From Clytia hemisphaerica (lineage: Eukaryota): a DNA stretch of 64,000 nt. The notes beneath the pieces are model-generated. The model was not told the origin of the DNA and did not search any database. It saw only the letters and a list, made by a program, of their open reading frames with translations. The position numbers and the translations under genes were made by a program. Location of the stretch: contig NW_027104315.1 in NCBI RefSeq assembly GCF_902728285.1, positions 162,032 to 226,031 of the forward strand. Reading direction: 5' to 3'. Every line of letters starts with the position of its first letter. Positions within the stretch are counted from its first letter, which is position 1. Below are positions 1-11,900 of this stretch, one piece after another.

Positions 1-1194
1 ATTTTAGAAAAAAAAAAGGTTTTTAGAGTCAAATCCTACCATTGTAAATAGAATTTACTCAACATTTTTAATGTTCAATTTAATTACTGATGTAATTTTG
101 TCTTAAAACTTTTTGCAACTTTGTATAAATACAACTGAATCAATATTAAAAGATTAATGAAAAATTCTTTAAAAGTCTAGTAAATTTAATCAATTCAAAA
201 TTTATTTGTTAAAGCTGCATAAATTTCCTTTTCCAGTAATGTAATCGCAAATTAAAAAATGTGATTTCCCTATTAACCCTTTAAGTGCCAATGTCGTATA
301 TATCAGACATGGGCTATGTAATGCCCAGTTTGAGTTAGAAATCGTCATTTGTGGTCTAGCTTGTAGGAATTGGATTAAACTTCTTGTCAAGCACAAAAAA
401 ATCAAAAGTGAGTCTTTTCAGCGAGATTTTAAGCCAAAAAGTAAAAAAAAGAATTTGACAAAAATCCACTTTTTTAAGATTTTGACCGTTTTTTGACCAT
501 TTTTGGTCAACGAGTGATCCAAGAACCTCCAATTTTGGCCCTGATTAACTTGATTCTGTCCTCCACCAAATTAATTTCAAGTTTTACCACTGGGCACCTT
601 TCTACCATTCAGGCAGGTCCGCACAGTGGATTTACCATTTACCGCCGCCCAACCCGTCCTTCCTAAATCCGAAGCCAAAGACGCCTAAAAGAAAGAGGAG
701 ACTCTAAGCTATCAAACGACCTATAAGCAAGCTTCCAACTCCTTCTAGATCCGGAGATATAAGCCTTTAAAGTTTGAACTAGCGATTTTCTTTAAAAAAC
801 TTGACCGTGGCACTTAAAGGGTTGAAATACTTTGTGAAGGAAATTATAGAAGACCAAATAAGGCTTTTTAATTAACTCATCTACTCCTCAATTCCCATTT
901 CGACTTTCGGTAAAAAAAAGTTTTAATATTTGATTAAAACATAAGAGGTTATGCCGATCTTAAAATTTGCTAAGATTCAAACTTCTGAACCATTCAAGAT
1001 GAGAGGCTGGATCCGAGTTGCTGTATTATTTTCAATAGCATTTGCTTTCAGCAAAGGTGAGCTTATTCTTCATTTATTCTCGAAACATTATTTTCATTCG
1101 CTCATCTTGGTCTCGCAAATTTTGGCAAAAAATGGACAAATCTTTATGTAAAGTATCCTCAAAACTCATTACCTTAACTGAACTTAAAATACCT

Positions 1195-1432
1195 TAAGTG
1201 GATAAATTTTGGCGCGGATTTCATTTGGCGAATGCTCAATTTTACGTGCTATTTTACTAAGAAATACATATTCTCCATAGAATTTCTATCTTAGAAAAAT
1301 TTAGTTAAATTTGGCGGGGATTTAATTCGGCGAATGGCTAATTTTTTTAAATTTTGGCGAGGATTTATTTTGCCAAAATTCGCAAAAATTCGCCAAATTT
1401 AATCCCCACCAAAATTTATCCACATAAGGTAA
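1195..1432. mobile_element. MITE (TIR CTTAAGTGGATAAATTTTGG…)
   Basis: 1195-1225 and 1402-1432 are inverted complements. Confidence 0.45.
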
Positions 1433-1509
1433 TTGAAAAAAAGTTCTCTTTGCAATCAATATATATTTAATTCCCAGAATGATTGAATAGGTTTTTGAGA
1501 TGGAAACAT

Positions 1510-1830
1510 TACCCGGGGGGGGGGGGGGGCACTGGGTTTGCGGACTGACGGTATGTGCGGGCCAAAAATTGGCTTTTAAAATTGCACCCTTACAGTGCAG
1601 CAAAAATCAGTGAAAATCATACCCTTAGAGTACATTTTCCCCCAAACTTTCGATCACTTTCGTGCAAAAATTGGTCAAAATATCTAGATTTTTCAAGAAT
1701 TTTCTAAAAGTTCTACCCTTACAGTGCATCTCTAGTTTTTCCGACCCTTACAGTGTATTTTAAAGCTATTGGAAAAGGTACCCTTAGGACCTGCACATAC
1801 CCGTCGGTCCTTTTGCCCAGCTGCCCCCCC
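1510..1830. mobile_element. MITE with G/C homopolymer-capped TIRs (…GGGCACTGGGTTTGCGGACTGACGGTATGTGCGGGCC) and internal CCCTTACAGTGCA subrepeats
   Basis: 1513-1560 versus 1785-1830 inverted; 4 copies of cccttacagtg. Confidence 0.5.
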
Positions 1831-2399
1831 GGGAAACATTAAGTATACAAGTCATAAAATTTGGCATAAATTGTGAGAATTTTAAATTATATAAAAAATT
1901 GTCCACTTTTTGGGACTTTATGTTCCATTTTCGAGTGGCACAAGCCCGTCAATTGGCCCCTATATTTGCAACTAATAGTGATGTGACTTTGATATGTCCA
2001 ATCTCCTTGACAGTATTAATCCACTACTTAAACTAGCAAGTAGCTGTCGCTATGAATGCCCCGCCAACGCATTCATAATCGAGAATGAACGTTTGAAGGC
2101 CGCATTCCACCAGATCGTTTTATTGGAACACCATTCAAAAAGCGCACATTCAAAAAGCGCACAGCTAAAGATTTCTAACGTTGAACGCTTGTCTCGTTCC
2201 TTTGAAACCATTATGCGCAGCACAATATCAAAAATCTTTTTACACAAGAAAAACAAACACCAGACAAAATCAAATGTTTTTCTTCTCTGTTGGCTGATAA
2301 ACAAAAGAAACGAGGTGTACAGCTTGGCGCACATGGTAAAATATCTTGATATCCCTTGTTCACTTTGTAGGAACTAATTACCGAAAGGTATATGGCTGT

Positions 2400-2760
2400 C
2401 TATCAAGAGTTATCAACTTGATTCTTATGGGGGGGGTACTTAGGCAAATGGTAGATACAGTATGTGCCGCCCTTAAGGGTACCTTTTTTGGACTTCCAAA
2501 GTCCTGCTAAGGGTCGAAAAAATCAAAAAATCTAATTTCAGTCCCACTAAGGGTCGGAAAAATAGGAAAATTTCAACTTTTTACCCCCTGAAAGATCGAA
2601 ATTTGGTCAAAATTGGTCAAATTTGTCCCGCTAAGGGTCGTAAAATTCCCCTTTGTTTTCTCCTTTTTAGTCCCGGTAAGGGTCCAGAGTTCGAAAGTCG
2701 GGCGGCACCCCCCCCCGTCAGCTTGCAACCCTAGAACACCCTCCCCCGGGTCCTTTGTTT
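2400..2760 (+). mobile_element. MITE copy (CCGCTAAGGGTCG subrepeats, G/C-run ends), orientation A
   Basis: Near-identical inverted copy at 8285-8640; spurious ORF 2613..2939 inside. Confidence 0.6.
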
Positions 2761-2761
2761 A

Positions 2762-3530
2762 CTTTGTAAAAACTAATTACCGAAAGGTATGTGGTACTCT
2801 GTATCAGAGTGTATCTCACGTTTATCGCTTCGTAGACGTACTCTCTGTGTGCATTGTCTGTTTGATAAAAATTTTCCCGTATACGGAGACCTCTGCAATG
2901 AAGTATAATTTTAAAATAAAATGGCAGCCGAAGCTATGAAAATTGTAAACAAAGGGATGGGGTCCATGATTGGGGGTAACTTTCTAAGCATGTTTTACAA
3001 AAGTTATGCCAACAAAACAAACTATAGCCACTCTACATAGATCAAACGCCATAAAAGTAGTACTGAATTTGAACTTAAAAGCAAAGAACTGAAGTTGAAA
3101 CCACCTAAAAAAACATGATTCAGAAGATTCCAATCCAACAACTTTACTCTCACGTTTGTGAACTCAAAGATCCAAAATGTAAACAAAAAACATTCGATTT
3201 GTGCAAAAAGAGTTATTTTGCAATAGAATGTCTTCATTTAGAGCTCTCTTTAATTAATTATCAAGAAGCTGGCTGGTTTTTTGTTATGAATTTTTTTCGA
3301 CAAACTTTATATTCTTTCTGACAATTCTGACGGCCATTTTCTCTTATCGCCTCCAATTTCTCGCCAAACTCCAACAGCACACCATCGCAGCGGTTGGTTT
3401 GAAAAATCTCAAACCAGAAAAGACAATGACAACAGACCCTCTACGGAAATGAATTTTGAAATTAGCCGTAGATATCGGGTCTGTGTACAGACAAGGTATG
3501 TGGCTTTCTATCAAGAGTTATTGACTCGAT
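2762..3530. repeat. Dispersed repeat family, two segments, also present at 19590-19700 and 19740-19870
   Basis: gtatctca(c/t)gtttatcgcttcgtag…gtctgtttgataaaa…gacctctgc(a/g)atgaagta, and …catcgcagcggt…aatgacaacaga(c/t)cctcta…gaattttgaaattagccgta shared. Confidence 0.5.
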
Positions 3531-4307: not shown

Positions 4308-4464
4308 ATGACAAACTTTTTCACTCTGACTATTCTTCTTTCAGCTTGTAATGATTATTCATCAGTCAAATGTTTCTTCAAGAAGCTTGGAGGAGGATGT
4401 AAGCCAACGGATGAAGATTATCCTTTCATGAAAGAAAATTGCTTAAAAGCTTGTGATATCTGTA
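4308..4464 (+). CDS. Serine protease gene exon 1: Met, hydrophobic signal peptide (MTNFFTLTILLSA) and a ShK-toxin-like 6-Cys domain (...CLKACDIC), ending at a gtaagt donor
   Basis: ATG followed by a hydrophobic stretch; C-x3-C-x2-C spacing at the end is typical of ShKT; donor a|gtaagt at 4465; exon phase fits the next exon. Confidence 0.5.
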
Positions 4465-4797
4465 GTAAGTAGAACAACAAACCTTTTCAAAAATTACGTT
4501 AGGAGCAACTTTTACCTCGTTTTCAAAATATTGCTATGGTGATTGATTCCCAGAGGAGTTCATAAAAAATATACTCTATTTATAGAAGTAACACTTGAAG
4601 ACTCGCGGGATCACTTGGTAGCTGTTTTAAAATGAGGCAGGTGTTGCACTCAAAATAATTTATGAAGAGGCCGAATCAAAATTTATAAACTACAGGCAAC
4701 TAAAGTCTGTACAGATATAATTGGCAGTGGAAACAAGAATGCCTGTAACTTTTTATAGTTAAATGTAAGAAAGTTCAAATGTTTGATGGTTTGTGCT

Positions 4798-5198
4798 CCC
4801 AGCTTTAAGCTGGGAGCAAACCATCAAACATGGTTCTTCAAACATTTGAACTCTCTTGTTGAATGGTTTGCGCGGCACTTTCCAACATTGTTTCAAACAT
4901 TTATTTTGTTGCATTACAACGGCTTCTTTCTTTTGTTTACTTTTCAAATCACGCGTTCGAAGTCATATTCAATGTTCGATTAGCAATGCAAGGTCTTCCT
5001 TCTAGGGAAAGCCCGAGTTGAATGTTTGAAGAAATTATGAACTTGCTCAAACATCTTTTCAAACATTTTTGGAGATTTTTTTGTTGAAAAGATACGATTT
5101 TTGACTCCGCAAACCGTCAAACATCGATTTCAAACATGAAACGTCACGATGTTTGAAGAACAATGTTTGACGGTTTGCTCCCAGCTTTAGAAATATCT
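4798..5198. mobile_element. MITE with about 45-bp TIRs (AGCTGGGAGCAAACCATCAAACATGGTTCTTCAAACAT)
   Basis: Left TIR 4798-4845 and its reverse complement at 5150-5198; a second copy is split by the LINE at 6034/7934. Confidence 0.6.
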
Positions 5199-5204
5199 TT
5201 CACA

Positions 5205-6024
5205 ACCAGTTAGACAGGCAGCTGAGGTCACAAAAAAATTGGACGGGGTGCGAACAATCCCAAACCACTTTTAATTGAAAATATACAACCTAAATATCTA
5301 GAAACCATCAACCGGAGTTGTTGAAATTACTTACCGGATGTGTCCGGTAATATTTTAGTACCTGATGACGTCATGCGTGCCCATAGGCTAACTGAAAAAA
5401 TTTTGAGAACCAACATAGACATATTATATACCGATCGAAGCGTTTTTTAACGTAGATTAAGAAAATGGTCAGTAACCATATCTGAAAATTTTGCTATAAA
5501 AAGTTAGAACGCTTTTCCTTTATGTCCGTAACGTCAATTTTACCTGTCCGAGACGAAAAAAAAATCAAAAATTCAAACTTATCAAAATTGAAATCTAAGA
5601 CCGCCATTCGAAAGCTCTCAAAAATCGATATAGAAGACTTTTAAGTGGATATATATGATTTCTCAACCTAACTCGAGAAAATCGATCCTAAAGAAAGTGT
5701 AAATATGACGTCATCAAAACTTCGGAAGCTTGTAACTTTTTATTATCAAATTTTCAGACATAGTTAGTGACCTTTTTTTTAATCTACGTCGATTGGTATA
5801 TAATATGTCTATGCTTTTTTTCATAAAAATTTTCATTTTGCTTGTGACGTCATCAAATACGAAAATATTTTCGGACGCGTCCGGTAATTATTTTCAAACT
5901 GTCCGGTTGATGATTTTGTGTTCAGAAAGGTCGTATCTATTGAAAACAACTGTTTAAAGTTTGTTCGCAAACTTTGTAGCTACTGCACTTTTTTATGTGA
6001 CCTCAGCTGCCTGACTAAGTCATT
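5205..6024. mobile_element. TIR element (about 20-bp TIR AGACAGGCAGCTGAGGTCACA) with three perfect TGACGTCA palindromes inside
   Basis: TIRs at 5208-5230 and 5997-6022; TGACGTCA at 5363, 5707, 5844. Confidence 0.5.
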
Positions 6025-6049
6025 TATGTCACTAAAGCTGGGAGCAAAC

Positions 6050-7933
6050 GACTACGACTTTAAATACCTCGAGTAGCAACTCTTCATGTCCTCCTGAAAA
6101 ACTGTTAAAACATTTCAAACTCCATTTCAATCCAAATAATGATAACATGAGACCCAATGAACTTGATAACTTACCAGATTTTGTTGAATCACTTCGTAAA
6201 ATTTCATCGACGATCACTATTAACAATGAACCTCCCACTATTGATGAAATTACTGAACACTTACATAAACTTAGAAACAAGAAAGCAAACAATGACATTG
6301 ATTCAGAATTATTAAAGAAATGTGAATGTCCAATCCTTCTCGATGCTATTCATCAAATGACTACAAACGTAAGGGAAAACTTCGACATTCCTACTGCCTG
6401 GGGAAATTCCCGATTGAAAACATTGTGGAAAGGTAAAGGGTCAAAGAAAGACCCCTCAAAGTATAGAGGCTTGAGCATAGGTTCAACTATATGTAAATTG
6501 ATCGTGAACATTATTTTGAGTAGACTCCAGCCTTGGTACGAGGCACAATTGACAGATGAGCAAAACAACGGATTCAGACAGAACCGGGGAACAACAGATG
6601 GGATTTACAACATCAAACGTATACAACAGATCTCCAATCGAAAACTACAGCCACTCTACCTTGTGTTTGTCGACCTCTCGGCAGCTTTCGATCACATCCC
6701 GCGCAAATGGATGTTTGATTCAATTAAACTTCGTTTCAAAGATGATCAAAGCTCACTCCTGATTGACATCCTTGAGAAACTGTATGAAAACACTTCTTTA
6801 AATTTTGAGGAAGCAACGTTTGAAACAACAAGCGGTGTTCGTCAAGGAGGACCAGAAAGCCCTAACCTTTTCAACTTGTACATTGATTTCGTAATGAGGG
6901 TTTTTCTTGAAAATAGTCGACAGATTGAAGAAATTAAATTCTTCAACCATAAATATCGTTTGAACACGAGAGCCATTTCTCGAAAACAAAGGGCTGTAAT
7001 GAGAGACAGGAACCAACGATCTTGGGGGACGTCAGAAATTCCATGGTCAGGATATGCCGATGATTTAGTGCTGTACCTTCTATCACTTGAAGGTCTTCAA
7101 AAAAGCATTCAACTCTTAGACGAAATCTTCACCTGTTTTGGTCTTGCAATAAATAACTCCAAAACAGAAACAATGATACTGAATGTTGACGAAATTCCAA
7201 CATCGATTGCAACCCTGAGAGGTGTCGACCTCAAAAATGTCTCCATATTTCGATACCTTGGAGCTTACATTAATTGCTGCGAGCCTAGTACAGGAGACAG
7301 TGAAATAAATCAACGAATCCAACTCGCTTGTCAAAAATTTGCATAACTATCAAACCTCTTGCAAAATTTCCATATCAACTTGAGAACACGCATTTCATTT
7401 CTGAACTGTTTTGTGCGTAGCCGTCTTACCTACGCCTGTCAAAATTGGTGTCTAACTACGAATCAACTAAACAGACTAGACATCACATACAGAACATTCT
7501 TGAGAAGAATGATATGCAATGGGTTTAAACAAATTGACAGAGAAAACAATGACTATCGACTAGTCATCACGAATGAGAATTTGCATGCACTTTGTGGAAC
7601 TCGTGACGTCACTGACTTTATCAAAAGTCAACAAGCGAGCTATGTGGCACATGTAATAAGAATGCCTAACGAACGGTCGTTGAAACAATTAATGTTTAAC
7701 GATGACACAAATCGTAAACGTGGTCGACCTTCCAAGACACTGTTAGACCAAGTTGTTTCTGATAAAGATGTTTCAATTGATGTATTTTGTAATAGATCAT
7801 TAAATGAGAGGGTGTGAGATTGCTCTAGGGTTCCCAACAACACAGACAACAATCGTCCAGTGTCTTTGGTAGCCCTACAGCCAATCCATCCTTATATAGG
7901 GATTAGATTGTAAAATTTTATTATTATTATTAA
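6050..7933 (+). mobile_element. 5'-truncated non-LTR (LINE) retrotransposon, RT domain only, ending in a (TTA)n tail; inserted into a MITE copy
   Basis: Flanking MITE sequence aaagctgggagcaaac | … | catcaaacatggttcttcaaacattt is contiguous in the intact copy at 4798-4845; 3' end ttattattattatta; possible 4-bp TSD AAAC. Confidence 0.7.
6147..7817 (+). pseudogene. LINE reverse transcriptase ORF (FVDLSAAFDHI, QGGPESPNLF, YADDLVLY motifs). The two track ORFs 6147..7346 and 7359..7817 are in the same frame, split by one TAA
   Basis: RT motifs read directly; both ORFs start at coordinates that are 0 mod 3; single in-frame stop at 7344-7346. Confidence 0.75.
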
Positions 7934-8016
7934 ACCATCAAACATGGTTCTTCAAACATTTACACTTGCATCTGATGACTTTCAACCATTATACCATTAT
8001 ATAGGCTCTCTGAGTC

Positions 8017-8116
8017 CAGCTGACACAGGACAACGTTGTTTCAACGTTCATCTAACGTTAAATGGACGTTGTGAACATTAAAATGACGTTGAAAGAACGT
8101 CGTGTGCCAGCTGGGA
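8017..8116. mobile_element. About 100-bp ACGT-rich MITE family (TIR CCCAGCTGGCACACAACGTTGT). Other copies at 9118-9188, 10775-10868, 30960-31058, 37593-37658, 49603-49700
   Basis: All copies share ...caacgttgtttcaacgttcatctaacgttatatggacgttgtgaacg... flanked by inverted cagctggg termini. Confidence 0.6.
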
Positions 8117-8189
8117 AACAACCCATCTTTGGATTTTCAAAAATCACAACATTTAACTCAAAAAGATATTTATTTCATATTCACCATAG

Positions 8190-8278
8190 AGGAATACACA
8201 GGAAAATGTGGAGTCAGAGAAAAAAAGACACGAATTGTTGGAGGAACAACAGCTAAACCAGGGGAATGGCCTTGGCAG
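8190..8278 (+). CDS. Serine protease exon 2: activation peptide and start of catalytic chain (KEYTGKCGVREKKTR|IVGGTTAKPGEWPWQ)
   Basis: ORF 8102..8323 holds the R-IVGG zymogen activation site and the WPWQ motif; acceptor ...ccatag| and donor cag|gtaagt. Confidence 0.7.
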
Positions 8279-8284
8279 GTAAGT

Positions 8285-8640
8285 TTTACCCCCGGGGGGG
8301 GGGGTACTAGGGTTGCAAGCTGACGGGGGAGGGGGGTGCCGCCCGACTTTCGAACTTTGGACCCTTACCGGGACTAAAAAGGAGAAAACAAAGGAAAATT
8401 TTGGGAATTTTACGACCCTTAGCGGGACTAATTTGACCAATTTTGACCAAATTTCGATCTTTCAGGGGGTAAAAAGTTGAAATTTTCCTATTTTTCCGAC
8501 CCTTACGGGGACTGAAATTTGATTTTCTGATTTTTCCGACCCTTAGCGGGACTTTGGAAGTCCAAAAAAGGTACCCTTAAGGGCGGCACATACCGTACCC
8601 TCCATTTGCCTAAGTACCCCCCCCCCCCCCCCCCCCCCGT
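8285..8640 (-). mobile_element. Second copy of the same MITE, inverted orientation, in trypsin intron 2, ending in a C28 run
   Basis: Reverse complement of 2400-2760; spurious ORF 8153..8440 (-) has the same translation as 2613..2939. Confidence 0.6.
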
Positions 8641-8993: not shown

Positions 8994-9102
8994 GTCAAAG
9001 TTGGAGGGTGCGGTGGCACTCTTGTTTCTGATCAATTTGTGGTGACAGCGGCTCATTGTTTCGATCGCAGCAAAGATCCTGACGACTATAAAGTTACTGC
9101 AG
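8994..9102 (+). CDS. Serine protease exon 3 with the catalytic His (VKVGGCGGTLVSDQFVVTAAHC...)
   Basis: TAAHC motif in ORF 8913..9122; acceptor ctctccctcag|; donor g|gtaacc. Confidence 0.8.
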
Positions 9103-9756
9103 GTAACCCATCTGGCACATAACGTTGTTTCAACGTTCACCTAACGTTATATGGACGTTGTGAACACAACGTTGTATGCCAGCTGGGAAGGCTCTTCGTT
9201 TATTTTGTTCTTCCACAGCCGTCAAAGGATTGAGAGCTTCTCTGTAGCAAAGCATCGTGACTTACGTTAATATAAACTTACATAAATCTATCGTAAAATA
9301 GAAAACAAAATGACAGATTTTAGTCTACTAGATTTGAGTGACGTAACAAGCAATTTTGGGGACAATATTTTTGAAAAAAAGACTTTTGACAAAATTAATT
9401 AACTTAGATATTAACCTCGATGATAATAAAGCTCCAGTTCTGTGAATTTCAGAAGCTATTTCCAGTTTTACGATGCAGGTCACAAAAGGAAATTAATGTA
9501 GAAAAGTCACAAAAAAACAATCGGGTAAAACTATCTGATTGGCTGAGATAGAAAAATTACCTCATACTTCAGACATTTTGAAAAGCGTATGTTTATGTGA
9601 GCAATTTTCAGCTGTAATTGACATTTTTTTCTGCTAATAGGAAATTCGTGTCTCGGTCTTTCACTAATTTTCCAAGCGCAGCGTCCGAAATAATTGTTGT
9701 CATGCGTTAAGTTAGAAAAATTACGGTAGCCGATATTACATCAACTTTCTTTTTAG

Positions 9757-10010
9757 GTGAACATGACAAATACGAAAAGGAACAATGGGAACAAAAAATG
9801 GAAATCGAAAAGATTATCATTCACCCAGCATATGGAAAACTTGTCTCTAATGATGCAGACATGGCCTTGCTTAAACTGAAGAAGAAAGTCTCGTTTAACC
9901 AACGCGTTCGACACGCATGCGTAGCTGATGATTTTGTTGATATTGGTTTAGATTCGGAATGTTGGGTGTCTGGTTGGGGCGCTCTTAAATTCAACGGGCG
10001 TTCTGCAAGG
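9757..10010 (+). CDS. Serine protease exon 4 with the catalytic Asp (DADMALLKL) and the SGWG motif
   Basis: ORF 9798..10064; D-x-ALLKL and CWVSGWG are trypsin-family signatures; acceptor ctttttag|, donor agg|gtaatt. Confidence 0.8.
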
Positions 10011-10621: not shown

Positions 10622-10748
10622 TATTTGCAACAAGCAAAATTACCGTTGATCGATCCCAAAGAATGTGTTGCTACCATGGGTTACCGAAGTATCACTGATA
10701 ACATGTTATGTGCAGGCTTCAAAGATGGCACTAAAGATTCTTGCCAAG
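10622..10748 (+). CDS. Serine protease exon 5 (YLQQAKLPLIDPKECVATMGYRSITDNMLCAGFKDGTKDSCQ)
   Basis: Typical LQQ-LP...C...MFCAG...DSCQG segment; Asp189-equivalent gives trypsin-like specificity; acceptor tttttttaag|, donor g|gttatt. Confidence 0.75.
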
Positions 10749-11900
10749 GTTATTATTTATATATACACCCCAGCCTGCACACTACGTTCTTTTAACGTCT
10801 ATCTAACGTTCACAACGTCCATATAATGTTAGATAAACGTTGAAATAACGTTGTGTACCAGCTGGGAACCCTACACCCTTGTCTCACAGCCCCGGTGGAA
10901 CTTTTTCCTCAGTGGGGATAAGAATTCCTATTTAAATCTCAAAGGCAATAGAAATTTCATTGTTCCAAGGTGAGAGCTCTACTGAGAGCTATTTGGGTCC
11001 CTTAGAACTGAAAGGGGGGCACATAGTGCCCCCCGTGGATAACTTAGGATAGGAACATTATTTGGTCATGAAATTTGGTACTGCAATGCTTAAACCTATA
11101 ACAAACAAATTTATCAAAAAATATTTTTGAAAATTGAATGCAATTTTTGATGACGTCATCAATTGTATCAACAATTGGCAAAAATCACCCAAAAGACTCA
11201 AAAAAAAAGATGTTTCTTAAAATTGCTATTGAAACGGATGGAGAAACACATTCTCCTTCATTTTGCTTTTATTTGGAAGCTTTTACAATGCAGTAAATGA
11301 AAATTAAATTCTAAATCAACAATTTTGTCGTGACGTTCTACTATAGCGCGCCAAAACCGAAGAAAATGTTTTCAACTTTCAAAACCACGTAAAATCAGAA
11401 CATTTCAACTTTTTCAAGTTGGTGATACTTTTTTTGTCATATTTATATTTATTTGTTGCTGCTAATTCTCCTGTAAGATGAAATAGAAGCAATACAAATG
11501 AAATGGACAATTAAAGTTTACTTGGTAACATGTTATAGTATCTTGGAGTAAGCACATAAAAAAGAGCAAAATAGCCTGCGCTGCAATTGTGCGATGGTAG
11601 TGGTCACCGACAAACCTGTCATTGGGACTAAAATAATTGACCAATGAAATAATTTTTTGAACCAAAACATTCCCCATAAAATTCGATGAAAAGTCATAAA
11701 ATTTCAGCTTTATAGATAGCCTCACTAGTTAAAAAATGCTAGCCAATTTTCTATCAGTAGGTAGGGTTAAGTGGTTAAGTGGTTGGTGATGGCTTCGGAG
11801 TACAATTTTCAAACATTGGATTTTGAATGGGGATGAAATCTTGAATTAAAGAAGATAGTTAGATATACCTAGCATTCTATCATCCCCATTATTTTTTCAG

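Follow-up and report, generated by a model that had tools for sequence, protein, structure and literature searches.

What is a long reverse-transcriptase reading frame doing in an intron of a trypsin-like gene, and what stood there before it arrived? The locus that raises this question lies in a stretch of 64,000 nucleotides of the Clytia hemisphaerica genome (contig NW_027104315.1, positions 162,032 to 226,031 of the forward strand), which we refer to as the window and whose coordinates are used throughout. An original prediction, made from the letters alone, read the locus as a nested insertion: a LINE, its reverse-transcriptase frame one mutation from intact, inside a MITE, inside the first intron of the gene. 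Here, we studied the locus together with its homologs.

The host gene and its second coding intron

The coding sequence is made of seven exons (951-1056, 4345-4464, 8190-8278, 8994-9102, 9757-10010, 10622-10748, and 11901-12079), all introns are bounded by GT...AG, and the spliced product is 100% identical to P0121, a protein of 327 aa named by NCBI “coagulation factor IX-like [Clytia hemisphaerica].” The first exon (951-1056) contributes the Met and a signal-like leader; the second (4345-4464) has an ShK-like match that falls below threshold (E = 0.0011, 19.9 bits relative to a cut-off of 20.9); and the third (8190-8278) is the start of the trypsin domain (Trypsin, E = 4e-68). The sequence between the second and third exons (4465-8189, 3,725 bp, plus strand, GT...AG) is where the reverse-transcriptase frame lies and, because a coding exon occurs upstream at 951-1056, it is coding intron 2 of the gene rather than intron 1 as predicted. 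An in-frame ATG at 4308, together with a hydrophobic stretch, could make 4465-8189 the first intron. However, this ATG falls within the acceptor region of exon 2 (its polypyrimidine tract and AG), and the model that begins with exon 951-1056 reproduces the NCBI protein exactly. The leader is also equal in length to that of the homolog P0122 (79% identical), with 19 residues from the (second) Met to the residue before a conserved AC. A start at 4308 was thus rejected.

A transposon end split by an insertion

The evidence that something was inserted into this intron comes from uninterrupted copies of the sequence on either side. The left flank (AAAGCTGGGAGCAAAC, 6034-6049) and the right flank, which resumes with CATCAAACATGGTTCTTCAAACATTT at 7936-7961, are separated by a block of 1,886 bp (6050-7935). 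Both pieces are contiguous at 4807-4847, the left end of a complete inverted-repeat element nearby that we call MITE-A, and they are contiguous again, inverted, in the other (right) end of that element (5149-5190). A third uninterrupted copy of the target is provided by an unrelated public contig, L003 (Ga0314701_10150302), of which bases 1-159 match 4965-4807 at 95.6%. The left piece, on the plus strand, is identical to 4807-4821 and to the L003 copy, and the 18 nt at 6032-6049 pair with 5173-5190 without a mismatch. The joined 25-mer across the flanks has 0.00 expected occurrences in shuffles of the window. Other copies have the flanks directly joined, and the insertion is therefore real. 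The predicted contiguity of the two halves in the neighboring copy is therefore borne out and extends to the inverted end and L003, so that the finding named in advance as damaging, halves that are contiguous in no other copy, is contradicted by three uninterrupted copies; the search for empty sites in other MITE copies found them in the neighbor (at both ends) and in L003. That the intervening 1.9 kb is a non-LTR element, as proposed, is corroborated for block 6050-7935 by its match to RVT_1 and by relatives with the same 3' end.

What was struck is less than was claimed. The intact neighbor (4805-5190, plus strand, 384-386 bp), which serves as the empty-site reference, has terminal inverted repeats at 4807-4845 and 5149-5187, with arms of 39 nt that are 95% complementary; the second copy, in L003, shares 95.6% identity with it across 159 bp. 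The right piece of the host sequence (7936-7961, plus strand) stops resembling these full copies at 7961, beyond which the window reads ACACTTG... and both the intact neighbor and L003 read GAACT.... There is no second terminal repeat downstream before exon 3, a search with up to three mismatches finding only the two ends of the intact copy. The host of the LINE is therefore a solo end fragment of 44 bp and not a MITE copy. Like MITEs, the reference copy at 4805-5190 is short and noncoding, has both terminal repeats (39 nt each), and is accompanied by at least one further copy elsewhere; unlike MITEs, the piece struck by the LINE is a single end without its partner. In all, the window has a single full copy of MITE-A besides two fragments of its ends, and L003 has one further copy.

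The 42 comparable bases of the host fragment are 100% identical to the neighbor's left end 1.2 kb upstream, which itself differs from the neighbor's right end at two positions, and 4767-4806 is a further orphan copy of the left end. The 44-bp flanks might accordingly be a local copy of that left end, produced by duplication or repair and possibly in the same event as the copy at 4767-4806. However, the conserved terminus CTAAAG, which in the host fragment starts at 6032, is found also in L003 and at 5185-5190, whereas the neighbor's left end reads TTTAAG, and we consider a local origin unlikely. Either origin of the fragment leaves the order of events unchanged, with the fragment first and the LINE second. 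We also considered a TTA/TAA target duplication for MITE-A, and hence an affiliation with PIF/Harbinger, and rejected it because CTAAAG or its complement is conserved at three independent ends and so is part of the repeat rather than a duplication.

Intron 2 of this Clytia gene is for the most part a stack of transposon remnants, and several other repeats were observed in and around it. A head-to-head palindrome at 4767-4857 joins the intact MITE-A copy to an abutting inverted copy of its left end (4767-4806), which matches the reverse complement of 4807-4857 past the terminal repeat, with a 12-bp deletion, and may stem from a repair or hairpin event or from insertion beside an older remnant. 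Between the intact MITE-A and the 44-bp fragment lies a foldback-like element (5193-6033) with 29-nt termini (TTAGACAGGCAGCTGAGGTCAC...) and inverted arms (5210-5514 and 5726-6018) of about 69% identity. A palindromic MITE-like repeat of about 100 bp with the ends CCAGCTG...CAGCTGG occupies 8016-8117 and has at least six copies in the window (the others at 9121-9166, 10769-10865, 30961-31045, 37593-37656, and 49604-49700), three of which fall within introns of the trypsin-like gene. A repeat containing a G run (8291-8624) stands at the start of intron 3, and intron 1 has an inverted version of it (2429-2750) with 92% identity. The L003 contig is an environmental JGI contig in which MITE-A (bases 1-163) lies upstream of a different ORF; its 95.6%-identical copy implies that the sample contained Clytia-like hydrozoan sequence.

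A 5'-truncated LINE copy that was dead on arrival

The inserted element is a 5'-truncated LINE copy of about 1,883 bp (6050-7932, plus strand), in the same (sense) orientation as the host gene, with 79% nucleotide identity to the related contig L002 and 76% to L001 along the whole copy. It preserves the remnant of a single ORF that is collinear with those of its relatives: 588 codons (6051-7814) followed by a TGA at 7815-7817, on the plus strand. The open stretch starts with the first inserted codon (6051), and across the 589 codon positions to the TGA there is one internal stop, a TAA at 7344-7346 (plus strand), where eight of nine relatives have Glu and P0012 has Ser. Relative to the other members there are no frameshifts and one extra in-frame Asn codon (EQNNGFR, within 6558-6575), and the C terminus (...NERV) ends at the same final residue as in P0001 and P0002. 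The prediction of a frame broken by a single TAA was verified; its length of about 555 codons had been counted from an ATG at 6147, and the full open stretch is the 588 codons from 6051. The reverse-transcriptase domain (Pfam RVT_1, E = 2.8e-27, residues 132-405) spans 6444-7265 on the plus strand, with the catalytic YADD motif at 7053-7064.

What is missing becomes clear from comparison with full-length proteins. Aligned with the 998-aa relative P0002, the copy starts near residue 411, so that about 410 N-terminal codons, including the endonuclease, are gone, and no upstream endonuclease segment or in-frame exon of the copy was found when P0002 was searched against the window with tblastn, only residues 424-998 being matched. 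Relatives of about 1,000 aa carry the endonuclease, and the predicted 5' truncation with loss of that domain is upheld. At the other end, the element closes with a (TTA)5 tail (7918-7932, plus strand), again as predicted. The 3' UTR is shared with L001 and L002, which terminate in this repeat at the corresponding position, so 7932 is the true 3' end. A self-BLAST of 6050-7933 returned the segment itself alone, indicating no terminal repeats of the LINE. Two sense-strand AATAAA motifs (7148-7153 and 7304-7309) lie within the LINE, in the host intron.

Without a 5' UTR or promoter, a start codon, or an endonuclease, the copy was dead on arrival and cannot have moved by itself. Describing it as one mutation from intact holds for the remaining frame but has no functional meaning, and “nearly coding-competent” is likewise functionally empty for a copy that is short of about 410 codons and its 5' end. 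An explanation for the near-intact frame other than youth is selection on a reverse transcriptase that was domesticated or exonized within the trypsin-like gene, an idea to which the length of the open frame and its sense orientation in an intron lend some appeal. Yet this frame is interrupted by a stop and lacks both a start context and an endonuclease; it carries four substitutions at positions that are invariant across the eight relatives compared; and the annotated protein P0121 skips the region entirely. We see next to no chance that selection of this kind has acted. No function is indicated for the LINE copy.

Full-length relatives and a conserved 3' UTR

A protein search with the reverse-transcriptase frame recovered 445 relatives, the closest being P0001 (84% identity, itself a partial ORF) and P0002 (80%, 998 aa). 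Many of these are proteins of about 1,000 aa that combine Exo_endo_phos or Exo_endo_phos_2 with RVT_1, as in P0002, where Exo_endo_phos covers residues 11-233 and RVT_1 residues 543-815; the annotated Clytia hemisphaerica proteins among them have about 56-64% identity. Full-length relatives occur as contigs of 3.2-3.45 kb with one ORF and a 5' UTR of 65-284 nt. For instance, L001, which carries P0002, is 3,338 bp long and consists of a 213-nt leader, an ORF at 214-3210, and a 3' UTR of about 115 nt ending in (ATT)n, and the same layout is seen in L004 (3,218 bp, ORF 66-3083) and L005 (ORF 285-3302). The unit of the tail differs among close relatives and can be (TTA)n, (TAA)n, or (TA)n. An exact-sequence look-up of the 399-aa ORF gave zero matches, and no specific account of RTE families in Clytia emerged from a literature search.

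The 3' UTR (7818-7917, plus strand) is conserved in five family members and contains two predicted hairpins, formed by 7822-7835 with 7868-7881 and by 7882-7892 with 7899-7910. Across the five sequences, 85% of cells are paired and both sides have changed in 10 of the 25 pairs; for these five, the covariation score was reached by none of 500 shuffles and the slid controls scored far lower. This pattern of paired change suggests that the hairpins are real, and they would fit recognition of the 3' end by the element's own reverse transcriptase. The sequences describe a hydrozoan RTE family with a conserved, structured-looking 3' UTR and with at most 84% protein identity to anything retrieved.

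Probable placement in the RTE clade

The element has the features of a LINE, namely a LINE-type reverse transcriptase, an AP endonuclease upstream in the same ORF (in the relatives), and a simple-repeat 3' end with 5' truncation. To place it among LINE clades, we used 30 reference reverse-transcriptase cores (RTE, CR1, Jockey, L1, R2, R4, and CRE) from Additional file 7 of PMC2887409, hand-transcribed, up to the last alignment block and excluding it, from a machine-read supplement that has visible errors. With the window reverse transcriptase as phmmer query, the eight best of the 30 references were all RTE (75-42 bits); the scores outside RTE were 41.6 for R2 and 32.5 each for L1 and Jockey, and CR1 references were absent from the 14 best matches, the lowest of which scored 26.4 bits. 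In a neighbor-joining tree, the window copy, P0002, and a Clytia relative fall inside RTE, beside BmRTE-d15 and HmRTE-e01. The clade that unites the window copy with RTE-1, BDDF (Bov-B), and BmRTE-d15 contained nothing but RTE references and query sequences in 155 of 200 bootstraps. The tree was built by a distance method alone (Poisson distances), and the badly extracted core of P0084, which has a long branch, spoils the two bootstrap counts that include it. A PDB sequence search, which matched only R2 and group II intron reverse transcriptases, was uninformative on the clade.

CR1/L2-group elements, too, have short tandem repeats at their ends and stem-loops in their 3' UTRs, so an origin of this copy in CR1/L2, or in another AP-endonuclease clade with a microsatellite tail, deserves consideration, the more so as the reference set is small and noisy. 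It is nonetheless improbable given eight RTE references at 42-75 bits when no CR1 ranks among the 14 best (lowest 26.4 bits), a tree position within RTE, and relatives whose ORF starts 65-284 nt from the contig start and leaves no room for ORF1. The question of RTE versus CR1/L2, posed with the original prediction, is answered by both the phmmer ranking and the neighbor-joining tree in favor of RTE and not CR1/L2, an assignment that should be taken as probable, coming as it does from a rough tree and noisy references.

The structure of the relatives points the same way. Hallmarks of RTE elements, given after Malik and Eickbush in a passage of PMC1291365, are one ORF and a 3' UTR that is unusually short and consists largely of AT-rich trimer-to-pentamer repeats; RTEs are typically present in genomes as 3'-partial copies that end in a simple-sequence repeat (PMC2887409). 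L001, L004, and L005 have a single ORF of about 1,000 aa and no ORF1, as RTE elements of about 3.2-3.3 kb do, and the window copy has a short 3' UTR with an AT-rich repeat, about 100 nt of unique sequence plus (TTA)5, the unique part being longer than in some RTEs. Like members of the RTE clade (RTE-1 of C. elegans, Bov-B/BDDF, JAM1, and the lepidopteran BmRTE and HmRTE elements), the relatives of 3.2-3.45 kb have one ORF of about 1,000 aa, with the AP endonuclease at the extreme N terminus followed by the reverse transcriptase and no ORF1, and their 3' UTR of about 115 nt ends in an AT-rich trimer repeat. Compared with known RTEs, this hydrozoan family was found under no name and has a tail unit that is variable among close relatives.

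Junctions and mode of integration

The motif AAAC occurs at both junctions, at 6046-6049 on the left and 7932-7935 on the right, and was proposed as a possible target duplication. The motif is indeed present twice, but any duplication is only 3-4 bp, since the right copy begins with the A that closes the TTA tail, and the left copy is part of a CAAAC that is present at the homologous position of L001 as well. The 5' junction reads ...GGGAGCAAACGACTAC... in the window and ...AGACAAACGACTAC... in L001; among the four relatives compared, L001 has CAAAC at this position and L002, L004, and L005 differ. Because the L001 junction shares CAAAC, these bases could stem from the target or the LINE or from both. 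Such ambiguity would, tentatively, be expected if a truncated cDNA had been joined at its 5' end with the help of microhomology. A duplication of at most 4 bp is also shorter than the 6-12 bp reported for lepidopteran RTEs (PMC2887409) and, being inseparable from the A of the tail or from microhomology, it is a weak hallmark of target-primed integration here.

Given all of the above, an RTE-clade LINE very probably integrated by target-primed reverse transcription into a pre-existing 44-bp transposon end in coding intron 2. Reverse transcription would have started at the (UUA)n tail on the nicked bottom strand (about 5'-GGTTT^GCTC-3') and would have stopped or been resolved after about 1.88 kb, and the 5' end would then have been joined at or near the short CAAAC/AAAC homology, leaving a duplication of 4 bp at most. 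Dead-on-arrival L1 copies of mammals offer a parallel: they are 5' truncated within an ORF, keep an intact 3' end, have a short and ambiguous overlap at the 5' junction, and decay neutrally. Unlike in mammalian L1, the tail of the window copy is a simple repeat rather than poly(A), and the microhomology is deduced from one relative only.

Age, order of insertion, and significance

How long ago this happened can be gauged from the decay of the frame. In the restored frame, 259 of the 5,292 possible single substitutions create a stop; if decay has been neutral, the one stop observed corresponds to a maximum-likelihood divergence of about 1.2% (95% Poisson interval 0.03-7%). Little decay since insertion implies an evolutionarily young copy; the searches recovered no second copy of this exact family from the same genome, and the best relative retrieved is only 84% identical in protein, so the argument for youth derives solely from the near-intact frame. 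A young insertion is compatible with this stop-based estimate, which is imprecise. Of the recent insertion and dating handle that were predicted, compatibility with youth (about 1% divergence) survives, and the handle itself is crude and, without a family consensus, weak. The relative order, in contrast, is confirmed: the transposon fragment pre-dates the LINE, which came later.

Taken in its full form, the original prediction, a LINE in a complete MITE in trypsin intron 1 with a true AAAC duplication and a usable dating series, is very improbable. It accounts for halves that are contiguous in other copies and for AAAC at both junctions, but the similarity of the host sequence to two full copies ends after 44 bp with no second repeat downstream, and the upstream exon places the insertion in intron 2. 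The object is instead an ordinary copy of an RTE-clade LINE, young and 5' truncated, that sits among transposon debris in an intron. It provides a clean example of insertion order, a DNA-transposon end and then an RTE copy, with little import beyond annotation.

The locus would gain interest if the family were still active in Clytia hemisphaerica and this copy recent or polymorphic between strains or haplotypes, a scenario that is conceivable although somewhat doubtful. In addition, the hairpins and the variable tail could together be the signal by which the reverse transcriptase recognizes its own element, and in that case they might also mobilize short nonautonomous partners with the same tail. 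An allele reading ...GGGAGCAAACCATCAAAC... would mark the insertion as polymorphic and, should the family prove active, strains of this laboratory model jellyfish might be told apart by the copy.
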